A DNA stretch of 64,000 bases from Candidatus Saccharimonadota bacterium (GCA_017512095.1 JAFWHC010000001.1:71099-135098), one strand, 5' to 3'. Numbered from the stretch's first letter, positions 51,635-57,129 are shown. Made by a program: numbers and translations. The notes: generated from the letters alone by a model not told the origin.

Positions 51635-52267
51635 GTGAGTTTGGTTGGCGTGATTTCTGTGTTGGTAGTGATTGTGTTTTCCATGATGCTGCATGAGCTT
51701 GCGCATGGTGGAGTGGCTTATCTTTTAGGAGATACGACGGCGAAAGATGATGGCAGGTTGACGTTGAATCCGTTAAAACATCTCGATCCGGTTATGTCGG
51801 TGATTTTGCCATTGGCTTCGTTTTTGATGGGCGGAGTGGTGTTTGGGGGTGCGAAACCCGTACCGGTAAACACGCGGCATCTTAAAGGCGGAGTTTGGGG
51901 AATGGCGGCAGTGGCCTTGGCTGGTCCTTTGACAAATTTTGTACTCGCGTTTATTGGGTTTTTGATTTGGGAGGGGGCTGGAGCGGTAGATTTGAATACA
52001 TTTTTGGGGACAACGGTGGTAAATTTAGTGTTCGTGAACTTAGGATTTGGAGTGTTTAATTTGATTCCTATTCCACCATTAGACGGGTCGCGGATTTTGT
52101 ATGCGATTGCGCCGGACGGAGCAAGAGAGTTTATGGATAAAATGGAAAAATATGGGATTTTTATTGTGTATATATTAATACTAGTGGGTGGAAATGTGTT
52201 CTCTTCGGTGATGACAGGGGCGATGAATGGGATTTTGCAAGGTTACTACTGGATTATTGGTCGGTAA
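51635..52267 (+). CDS. Site-2 protease (M50 family)
   Basis: HELAH, TLNPLKHLDP, ALAGPLTN, NLIPIPPLDG. Confidence 0.94.
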   Translation: MSLVGVISVLVVIVFSMMLHELAHGGVAYLLGDTTAKDDGRLTLNPLKHLDPVMSVILPLASFLMGGVVFGGAKPVPVNTRHLKGGVWGMAAVALAGPLTNFVLAFIGFLIWEGAGAVDLNTFLGTTVVNLVFVNLGFGVFNLIPIPPLDGSRILYAIAPDGAREFMDKMEKYGIFIVYILILVGGNVFSSVMTGAMNGILQGYYWIIGR

Positions 52268-52283
52268 CCTGATATAATGTAAT

Positions 52284-52420
52284 TGTACCTTTACTGGTAG
52301 CATAATTTTCTCTGTATAGTTATGTTTACGGGATTTCGTGGCAAGTCTCCGTGGAGGCTGCGCATAAGATTTTACCCACCTTGCAAATCAGCAGGGAAAA
52401 TAGGCCGGTAAGGGTATACC
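52284..52420 (+). ncRNA. ssrS: 6S RNA-like (compact, ~135 nt)
   Basis: TG-A-TATAAT promoter; 14 bp closing stem 52284-97/52405-18; 11 bp stem 52305-15/52391-401; ACCCACCUUG motif; alternative CCUUGC/GCAGGG hairpin. Confidence 0.7.
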
Positions 52421-52446
52421 TTATTGTAATATATAGAAGTGGTGGG

Positions 52447-53313
52447 ATGAAACAAAGAATTCGAGTTGTTGGAATTTTGAGGAGGGAAGGGGAAATTCTT
52501 TTGATGAAAAGACGAACAGGCCGAAGTACGGAGCCTGTTTTTTGGGAGTTGCCGACGGGCAAAATTAAGTTTGGTGAACAGCCAGAAGAAACAATGGCGC
52601 GGACGGCGTTGGAATATCTTGGCGTAGAGGTGAAGGAAGTGACGCTGAAGGACGTGGTGACATTTTTGGCTTTTACTGGTGCGAGCCAAATGGCGAATCT
52701 CTATATTGTGTATGAAATAAAAATAGCAGATACGGCGAAGTTGCAACCAAGCGAAAGATATTCAGCATTTAAGTTTTTGAAGCAGGATGAGTTCTCTAAA
52801 GTAAGAGTAGACGAAGCTACCGGAGCAGTGTTGTCGCTTGAAGATGAGGCTAAGTTTGAGGCGACGAATGGGGGAATGAGGGAAGCGGTGAACGGGGCGA
52901 TGGTGTATGTGGATGGAAGTAGCCGGGGGAACCCGGGTCCGGCGGGAATTGGTTATTATATTGTGGGTGAGAATGGCGAGACGCTGCTTAAGGGTGGCGA
53001 ATTTGTTGGGTTTGCGACGAGTAGGGTGGCAGAGTATTACGCATTGAGGACGGGCGTAGAGAAGGCGATTGAACTGGGCTTAAAGAAAGTGCGGTTTATT
53101 GGTGATAATTTGATGATGATTAATCAAATGAATGGTATATATAAAATTAAGAACCGAGATCTTTTGCCAATATATGCGGATATACGGGAGAAAGTGGCAG
53201 GGGGATTTGAAGCGGTGTCGTTTACGCATGTAAAAAGGGAATTGAATAGCGAGGCGGATAAAGAAGCGAATTTGGCGATTGATAGACATTTTGATTCGGA
53301 TATGGTAAAATAA
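52447..53313 (+). CDS. Degenerate NUDIX domain - ribonuclease HI fusion
   Basis: WELPTGKIKFGEQPEETMARTALEY (NUDIX-like); VDGSSRGNPG, AEYYAL, IGDNL, NSEADKEAN (RNase HI); ATG 52447. Confidence 0.88.
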   Translation: MKQRIRVVGILRREGEILLMKRRTGRSTEPVFWELPTGKIKFGEQPEETMARTALEYLGVEVKEVTLKDVVTFLAFTGASQMANLYIVYEIKIADTAKLQPSERYSAFKFLKQDEFSKVRVDEATGAVLSLEDEAKFEATNGGMREAVNGAMVYVDGSSRGNPGPAGIGYYIVGENGETLLKGGEFVGFATSRVAEYYALRTGVEKAIELGLKKVRFIGDNLMMINQMNGIYKIKNRDLLPIYADIREKVAGGFEAVSFTHVKRELNSEADKEANLAIDRHFDSDMVK

Positions 53314-53316
53314 CAG

Positions 53317-53663
53317 AGAGCTAGAAAGGCAATCGCTTGGAACTATATTTCAAGAGGAAAGTCCGGACAGCATAGGACAAGGTAGTCGCTAACGGCGACC
53401 AAGAGCGATCTTAGGGAAAGTACCACAGAGACAATACTACCATCTTGCTTGCAGGATGGAAAAGGTGAAAAGAGTGAGGTAAGAGCTCACAGCGGCATAT
53501 GGTGACATATGTCGGTGGCAAACCCTACCTGCTGCAAGGAGTGCTAGAAAACCCTGGTTCGGGGATGCACGGTCACCGCGTGAACATTATAGCAATATAA
53601 TGTCTAGATAGATGATTGCTGGCGGCCTCGGTCGTTACAAAATCCGGCTTACGAACAGCTCAT
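53317..53663 (+). ncRNA. rnpB: RNase P RNA
   Basis: GAGGAAAGTCCG (CR I), ACAGAGAC, GGCAAACCC, ACAAAATCCGGCTTA (CR V), GAGCT/AGCTC P1. Confidence 0.97.
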
Positions 53664-53664
53664 C

Positions 53665-53692
53665 AAAAAATCTCTCCTTAGAGAGATTTTTT
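53665..53692. terminator. Bidirectional terminator rnpB / rpmB
   Basis: AAAAAATCTCTC-CTTA-GAGAGATTTTTT. Confidence 0.88.
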
Positions 53693-56770: not shown

Positions 56771-57129
56771 GGGGCTGACAAAGCTTAGACGAATTATTAA
56801 CAGATATCAAGCGTTACGATTGAACACCGTAAGTGTTAAATAAGTGCTGAAAACACTGTTGCAAGGCGTGTTGCTTACATGCCTGCTTATGCCTAATTTA
56901 ATTTTATAGGCTGGTCTATTCTCAAGATTCCGTAGAGGATAGATTATCATACGACGGGATTAAGGGTTTCTTAGTGACGAGAGAAACTTCGAAAAAAATA
57001 GTCAAGGCAGCTTAGAGTTTCGTTTCTTGCCGCTCTAAACGAGATGCCGAGACAAAACAGGAAACTATGAACGTAGAATGATATCCAGTGGTTTTTCGGA
57101 CCCGGAGGCAGTATCCGGCAGCTCCACCA
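56771..57129 (+). ncRNA. ssrA: tmRNA (one-piece); tag (A)AENTVARRVAYMPAYA* at 56846-56896
   Basis: GGGGCUG/CAGCUCC-A-CCA acceptor with G3.U; resume context AUAAGU-GCU; T-arm CCGGA-GGCAGUA-UCCGG. Confidence 0.95.

Follow-up and report, generated by a model that had tools for sequence, protein, structure and literature searches.

Positions 52285 to ~52420 on the + strand of the DNA analyzed here, a stretch of 64,000 nucleotides that we refer to as the window, are very probably the ssrS (6S RNA) gene of Candidatus Nanosyncoccus, in a shortened form of ~136 nt. 6S RNA is among the few near-universal regulatory RNAs of bacteria; it mimics an open promoter and holds back RNA polymerase. It is widely distributed and is usually present in one, rarely two, copies per genome. 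The initial annotation of this DNA had described a miniaturized 6S-like RNA with its own promoter, masked by an over-extended open reading frame (ORF), and our analysis supports the core of that reading.

A structured RNA gene between two protein genes

The host genome (625 kb) is that of a Candidatus Nanosyncoccus (Saccharibacteria, order Saccharimonadales, Patescibacteria). Within it, the RNA lies in the 179-nt gap that separates a peptidase gene from the ATG of a gene encoding a fusion of NUDIX and RNase HI domains. The features of the locus are:

51635-52267: Peptidase_M50 gene, the upstream neighbor (Pfam)
52270-52278, + strand: extended -10 promoter TGaTATAAT (from the sequence; conserved in register)
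52285-~52420, + strand: small RNA gene, ~136 nt, inside the gap between the M50 gene and ATG 52447
52441-52446, + strand: GGTGGG abutting ATG 52447, complementary to CCCACC at 52375-52380
52447-53313, + strand: NUDIX-RNase HI fusion gene, also a neighbor (Pfam NUDIX, RVT_3, and RNase_H)

The minimum free energy (MFE) of 52285-52420 is -50.1 kcal/mol on the + strand (z = -4.69), a value that none of 200 shuffled sequences matched. In the same shuffle test the opposite strand gave z = +0.19, i.e., the fold is specific to the + strand. The promoter that had been assigned to the RNA, TG-A-TATAAT at 52270-52278, is borne out by comparison with relatives, as it lies in register, at a constant distance upstream of the RNA, in all 20 aligned Nanosyncoccus copies. 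More widely, 53 family members were examined, and most of them have a -10-like hexamer upstream. Given the position of this promoter, the likely transcription start can be placed at ~G52285, which is predicted to be the first base of the closing stem. No terminator was predicted downstream of the RNA. The mature 3′ end probably lies near 52418-52420 and is probably made through processing of a longer transcript.

As the initial annotation pointed out, the ORF track extends the downstream coding sequence over the RNA, to a GTG at 52351. A protein-coding extension from this codon was rejected, since all orthologues start at ATG 52447 and the region shows gaps that are not multiples of three, together with covariation of the kind expected of RNA.

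Distribution in Saccharimonadales and other Patescibacteria

BLASTN detected the RNA, once per genome, in 23 of 24 relatives from the same genus. A covariance model built from the genus copies retrieved the RNA at full length, once in each genome, from many families of the order, and the copies that it retrieved were used to build a second model (R2). Matches to R2 were found in 22 of the 23 sampled genomes of the order (one full-length match each) and in a further 38 genomes from other classes of Patescibacteria, and the RNA was single copy in every genome that was positive in this search.

Relationship to the Rfam 6S family

When the RNA was searched alone against the 4227 families of Rfam, the best match was to 6S RNA (RF00013; 16.8 bits, E = 0.092). 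The alignment covers model positions 1-187 and window positions 52283-52420, i.e., the full length. Thus, comparison with the Rfam 6S models, which the initial annotation had proposed as a check, gives 6S as the best family over the whole RNA, although the score of 16.8 bits falls under the gathering score of 46.4 bits. In a search of 401 nt with Rfam, no RF00013 match was obtained at E ≤ 10. RF00013 also recovers homologues at identical coordinates and on the same strand, with scores of 35.8 bits (E = 5e-6), 25.6 and 22.5 bits, and 34.4 and 27.9 bits. None of the Saccharimonadales copies tested reaches the gathering score (16.8-36 bits versus 46.4). Since all of these copies are below threshold, membership in the family rests on chained similarity rather than on a direct pass.

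The chain can be followed in both directions. Across a sample of 401 genomes of the phylum, RF00013 gave 39 matches, eight of them above the cut-off. In 11 other genomes of Patescibacteria, R2 and RF00013 point to the same locus and strand, and in one of these (G425, 46.8 bits) the RF00013 match exceeds the Rfam cut-off. Reciprocally, RNAs to which RF00013 gives 73.2 and 46.8 bits are recovered over their full length by R2, at 36.7 and 28.6 bits, respectively (E = 2.5e-8 and 2.1e-6, E-values from our own covariance models being rough). These Patescibacterial RNAs have both the apical CCGUGG loop and CACCCACCUGG in common with the window RNA.

The link is also visible in individual motifs, of which the most prominent is:

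52375-52381, + strand: CCCACCU, the 6S signature at the junction of terminal arm and 3′ bubble (Rfam 6S consensus positions 128-134)

Scanning of E. coli ssrS displays the Rfam 6S consensus as "...auaauaGGGagccc...gggcaCCCACCUggaAcagCaGGuUCaAggg". Two segments of the window RNA that are invariant in the genus, GGG at 52330-52332 and CCCACCU at 52375-52381, align to "GGGagccc ... caCCCACCUgg" in this consensus, and CCCACCU is near-invariant over the 53 homologues. The resemblance of ACCCACCUUG (52374-52383) to the 3′ bubble of 6S RNA, noticed in the initial annotation, holds up well: the segment is invariant in the genus and fits the "caCCCACCUgg" portion. As in the consensus, the 5′ bubble strand is A/U-rich, and the segment that follows CCCACCU is able to pair with either the 5′ strand or the 3′ bubble. 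The host genome contains no other 6S candidate, the best alternative match having 11 bits. Because the RF00013 and R2 matches are coincident and reciprocal, and because the signature is present, we class the RNA as a divergent homologue of 6S RNA.

The RNA can fold as a 6S-like rod

In the rod, a small internal loop separates the 14 bp of the closing stem (P1) from an inner helix of 11 bp (P1b); beyond these lie the central bubble, with 15 nt on one strand and 14 nt on the other, and a terminal arm of 48 nt (P3). The elements of the rod are:

52284-52298, + strand: 5′ strand of P1, the closing stem; pairs with 52404-52418 (MFE)
52303-52314, + strand: 5′ strand of P1b, UAAUUUUCUCUG, the inner "downstream" helix and predicted pRNA template; pairs with 52392-52402
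52315-52329, + strand: 5′ strand of the central bubble, UAUAGUUAUGUUUAC (rod fold)
52330-52377, + strand: P3, the terminal ("upstream") arm, with GGG/CCC at its base, invariant internal loops, and a covarying apical stem
52378-52391, + strand: 3′ strand of the central bubble, ACCUUGCAAAUCAG (rod fold, Rfam alignment)
52392-52402, + strand: 3′ strand of P1b, CAGGGAAAAUA (constrained fold, covariation)
52404-52418, + strand: 3′ strand of P1 (MFE, genus covariation, Rfam alignment)

Each of the helices that form the rod (P1, P1b, and P3) covaries. The 14-bp closing stem described in the initial annotation is predicted here as 52284/5-52298 with 52404-52418, and within the genus both sides change in 10 of 11 of its pairs. 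The 11-bp inner stem is likewise present, as 52303-52314 with 52392-52402. In an alignment across families that was fitted to the rod, each of the 11 pairs of P1b shows changes in both partners, and the share of paired cells is 88.5%. The Rfam 6S alignment places the 5′ strand of P1b on the bubble-proximal closing helix of the model. When RNAduplex energies of P1b were compared with those of mononucleotide shuffles, the median z was -1.6; 52 of 53 homologues gave negative values, 21 of them below -2. As this duplex test is moderate per sequence, the case for P1b comes mainly from the structure-fitted alignment and from the comparison of models on held-out homologues described below.

Within P3, the apical stem pairs 52344-52349 with 52354-52359, and its loop, CGUG (52350-52353), lies inside the conserved CCGUGG. 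The terminal arm originally drawn for this RNA (52320-52325 with 52362-52367, 52327-52331 with 52349-52353, and 52332-52336 with 52343-52347) had to be given up, since its positions are paired in 65% of cases, the same as in shuffles, and show zero compensation.

A competing four-way junction

For the free RNA, the MFE structure is a four-way junction (P1-P2-P3-P4) that lacks an open bubble. The rod has a free energy of -45.8 kcal/mol when constrained, versus -49.9 kcal/mol for the junction. Two hairpins distinguish the junction from the rod:

52299-52326, + strand: P2 hairpin, 52299-52307 paired with 52318-52326 (MFE); competes with P1b for the 5′ strand
52379-52396, + strand: P4, the 3′-bubble hairpin CCUUGC/GCAGGG, 52379-52384 paired with 52391-52396

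RNAalifold of the genus alignment also yields the four-way junction P1-P4, in which 17 of 39 pairs show compensatory change, mainly in P1 and the apical stem of P3. P2 exhibits G-C to A-U compensation within the genus and, across families, is covarying and 77-86% paired in an alignment fitted to the junction; its z is less than -2 in 28 of 53 homologues. The initial annotation had proposed that CCUUGC can re-pair with GCAGGG, and in silico this pairing is well founded: z is less than -2 in 51 of 53 homologues, and in the junction-fitted alignment P4 is 95% paired with covariation at three inner pairs. For both folds, covariation counts are biased towards the structure to which each alignment was fitted. 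As the 3′ half of P4 overlaps the 3′ strand of P1b, P4 can be complete only when P1b is open.

To compare the folds on equal terms, models of the rod and of the junction were made from the same genus alignment and scored on held-out homologues. The two performed about equally, with the rod better in ~21 of 35. One G-to-A substitution among the Nanosyncoccus copies falls in the 5′ strand that the two folds share, and both partners of that strand carry a compensating change. We conclude from these results that both of these mutually exclusive folds are under selection. P2 is without a described counterpart in 6S RNAs.

How might two conserved folds be used? One proposal is that the free rod isomerizes to the closed four-way junction, with P1b giving way to P2 and P4, such that RNA conformation gates the capture of polymerase, and that in Nanosyncoccus the RNA serves in addition as the 5′ leader of the NUDIX-RNase HI gene, CCCACC perhaps masking GGUGGG. 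We consider this combination unlikely. If true, conformational gating of polymerase capture would be a layer not described for 6S RNAs, and masking of GGUGGG by CCCACC would tie the expression of an RNA-processing enzyme to the 6S cycle.

Another possibility, to which we assign slightly less probability still, is that the RNA is a distinct and undescribed RNA of Patescibacteria, for which the four-way junction is the working fold and the partner is a molecule other than polymerase. Its likeness to 6S RNA would then be ancestral or convergent and would not involve polymerase trapping. That the junction is the MFE structure, that P2 and P4 covary, that the loop and junction sequences are unusually conserved, and that the Saccharimonadales copies all fall below the Rfam 6S cut-off would all fit such an RNA. 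However, P1b also covaries and performs on a par with P2 plus P4 in predicting held-out homologues; similarity runs in a continuous chain, in both directions, to RNAs above the 6S cut-off; no other gene for 6S RNA was found in the genome; and the 6S RNA of E. coli contains an exact functional analogue of P4. These observations argue for the 6S reading.

Genomic context

The M50 gene upstream is a constant neighbor of the RNA across the order. The downstream side is more variable. In most other families of Saccharimonadales (L026-L052, L174-L183), a gene for tRNA-Pro(GGG) lies 20-40 nt after the RNA on the same strand and is followed by the NUDIX-RNase HI gene and then rnpB. This tRNA gene is absent from that position in Nanosyncoccus, and L190 and L191, two loci of Patescibacteria from other classes, have a gene for tRNA-Thr(UGU) there instead. 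It is only in Nanosyncoccus that a protein gene directly abuts the RNA: in 15 of 20 loci of the genus, 10-31 nt separate the RNA from the start of the NUDIX-RNase HI gene, which has no promoter to itself. The presence of a tRNA gene downstream in most families, together with the constant M50 gene, fits a stable RNA gene and not an mRNA leader.

The arrangement in Nanosyncoccus could nevertheless suggest that the RNA acts in cis as a riboswitch-like or autoregulatory leader of the NUDIX-RNase HI mRNA, in which CCCACC(UU) pairs with (AA)GGUGGG to gate translation and the junction is the sensing fold. The short spacing in those 15 loci leaves no room for a promoter, and invariant loops and alternative folds are typical of riboswitches. 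Moreover, the NUDIX-RNase HI gene is the only one of the genome's 617 ORFs in which GGTGGG abuts the start codon. The motif is retained, fully or nearly so, at the 15 loci of the genus in which the gene abuts the RNA and is absent from four of the five in which the gene is more distant; the fifth, L005, has GGTGGG three bases before its ATG. Several findings speak against a leader. Beyond Nanosyncoccus, a tRNA gene comes after the RNA, or the NUDIX gene is distant or absent, and the conserved neighbor is instead the M50 gene. CCCACCU is the signature of the 6S family and is invariant also where GGUGGG is missing. Folding of the extended transcript, examined both as MFE structure and as base-pair probabilities, did not predict the CCCACC/GGUGGG pairing. 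Finally, the Rfam links are to 6S RNA, and no riboswitch family matches the RNA. A leader would be expected to form a constant 5′ UTR of functionally coherent genes, whereas the RNA stands upstream of NUDIX-RNase HI only in the genus. Given the tRNA genes downstream in other families and the lack of a predicted pairing, we rejected a riboswitch or Shine-Dalgarno-sequestering leader as the main reading and consider it very improbable. The complementarity of CCCACC and GGTGGG weakly suggests a possible link of the 6S RNA to the downstream gene.

The surroundings of the RNA have several other features. In a few Nanosyncoccus genomes, an insertion of 90-170 nt separates the RNA from the NUDIX-RNase HI gene; the one at L011:1649-1794 is a long inverted repeat, and the one at L015:1294-1462 has its own TGcTATAAT promoter. 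In the window, the NUDIX-RNase HI gene ends 4 nt before rnpB (RNase P RNA, 53317-53666), and a TG-extended promoter-like site is found at 53283-53311, within the end of the ORF. The order M50 - 6S - [tRNA-Pro] - NUDIX-RNase HI - rnpB is conserved over Saccharimonadales. The region is rich in stable RNA genes, as the window also contains a tmRNA gene (56771-57129, 79 bits) and, elsewhere, five tRNA genes.

Other RNA classes

Since RF00169 detects no signal recognition particle (SRP; 4.5S/ffs) RNA in the host genome at E ≤ 10, nor any at E ≤ 1 in 19 of 20 relatives, while control genomes are detected, an SRP RNA is unaccounted for, and the window RNA is single copy, rod-like, and of similar size; we nonetheless rejected this identity on motif grounds and regard it as barely credible, because the RNA contains neither the GNRA tetraloop nor the conserved helix-8 sequence (its apical loop is CGUG and its second hairpin loop is variable), and because no SRP family matches it at E ≤ 10, whereas 6S does. 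For the host genome and the 20 relatives, the RF00169 searches indicate that the SRP RNA of Saccharimonadales is either very divergent or absent. tRNA-like RNAs, ribozymes, and other Rfam families gave no match to the window RNA at E ≤ 10.

Shortening of the RNA and promoters of the genome

Relative to the Rfam 6S model, the window RNA has two deletions. One removes the large internal loop and the middle of the closing stem and the other the apical third of the terminal arm. The initial annotation had described a truncated upstream arm; the Rfam alignments confirm that the terminal arm is shortened but reveal that the closing stem is shortened too. Copies from other Patescibacteria are ~145-165 nt, making the Nanosyncoccus form the shortest. 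A longer closing stem is implied for other families of Saccharimonadales, in which the -10 box is displaced upstream by 10-15 nt.

It had been suggested that loss of part of the upstream arm, which in 6S RNAs would correspond to upstream promoter DNA, tracks the use of promoters that do not depend on a -35 element. TGnTATAAT sites number 176 in the 625-kb genome, where ~19 are expected (a ~9-fold excess), and a weak -35 TTG signal (0.6 bit) remains. These figures agree only loosely with the suggestion.

For 43 of 617 ORFs, the distance from the end of a TATAAT to the ATG is 7 nt, a spacing that suggests many leaderless mRNAs; the remaining genes have Shine-Dalgarno sites of the AAGGAGG type.

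Discussion

If the window RNA is a 6S RNA, how would it work? By analogy with the 6S RNAs of E. coli and B. subtilis, the rod would mimic an open promoter and fill the active-site cleft of the holoenzyme that contains the housekeeping sigma factor. P1 and P1b would take the place of downstream DNA, the bubble that of the melted -10 region, and P3 that of upstream DNA. With rising NTPs, polymerase would copy the 5′ bubble strand and P1b into a short pRNA. This pRNA is predicted to be 5′-AUACAGAGAAAAUUA, starting opposite U52317, a position set in the Rfam alignments by analogy with U44 of E. coli (the third unpaired base after the downstream helix). The pRNA predicted in the initial annotation, AUACAGAGAAAAU..., agrees with the one derived here from the alignment to U44. 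Copying would unzip P1b, and the freed 3′ strand (CAGGG...) could re-pair with CCUUG of the 3′ bubble to form P4, upon which the bubble may collapse and release polymerase. P2, in turn, may let the free RNA isomerize into the four-way junction.

Both polymerase binding and pRNA synthesis by the window RNA are what we infer from 6S RNAs of other bacteria. When pRNA is made on E. coli 6S RNA, the bubble-proximal "downstream" helix is unwound, and the freed 3′ strand makes a 9-bp hairpin in the 3′ bubble, driving release (PMC8876501). The pairing of this hairpin, CCUUGAACC/GGUUCAAGG, is visible in our Rfam scan of ssrS. By this comparison, P1b and P4 would follow the same logic as release in E. 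coli. Truncated B. subtilis 6S-1 RNAs of 78-82 nt, which lack a "-35-like" region, can bind polymerase, template pRNA, and get released, although their affinity is ~10-fold lower (PMC8876501). Since such engineered RNAs complete the cycle, a natural form of 136 nt is plausible.

The window RNA has much in common with E. coli 6S RNA (SsrS; RF00013). Both form a rod of closing stem, central bubble, and terminal arm, with an A/U-rich 5′ bubble strand and GGG...CCCACCU flanking the terminal arm, and in both the bubble-proximal helix has a 3′ strand that is able to switch its pairing to the 3′ bubble (CCUUG...) (PMC8876501). Both are encoded by one gene per genome with its own sigma70-type promoter, and neither has a terminator, co-transcription with the downstream gene being probable (in E. 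coli, ssrS-fau). The window RNA differs in its length (~136 versus ~184 nt), in the additional conserved P2 on the 5′ side, which gives the free RNA its four-way junction, and in the strong conservation of the CCGUGG apical loop and the internal loops; indeed, its loops are more conserved in sequence than is usual for 6S RNA.

Closer relatives are the Patescibacteria 6S RNAs that Rfam detects (L195, L194), which have the CCGUGG apical loop, AGGGAG, and CACCCACCUGG as well and are already short, at ~150-160 nt. These RNAs have a longer closing stem and score 46.8-73 bits with RF00013, whereas the Saccharimonadales copies, above all those of Nanosyncoccus, are shorter and more divergent. Ms1 RNA of Actinobacteria is much longer (~300 nt) and binds core enzyme instead of holoenzyme. 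It is without the CCCACCU signature of the window RNA, and we saw no sequence link between the two. Like the window RNA, Ms1 is rod-shaped and 6S-like, and it is described as binding RNA polymerase (PMC9130861). The engineered B. subtilis RNAs 6S78 and 6S82cp resemble the window RNA in that short arms flank a bubble (PMC8876501). However, they are laboratory constructs with ~10-fold weaker binding (PMC8876501), whereas the window RNA is natural and conserved and has ~25 bp on its closing side and a terminal arm of 48 nt.

Among the papers that we searched, none was found to mention 6S RNA for Saccharibacteria or the Candidate Phyla Radiation; a single paper contains both "6S RNA" and "Patescibacteria", each term once. 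Standard annotation misses the 6S gene in these ultrasmall episymbionts, and the Rfam model misses all of the Saccharimonadales copies sampled. Recognition of the gene fills this gap in annotation and corrects an over-extended ORF. By analogy with better-studied 6S RNAs, it would also mean that the sequestration of polymerase by an RNA decoy is kept in genomes of ~0.6 Mb. At ~136 nt, the RNA would rank among the shortest natural 6S RNAs and, as a natural counterpart to the engineered minimal 6S-1 RNAs, it helps to define which parts of 6S RNA are dispensable. The conserved, competing four-way junction adds a further feature that can be tested.
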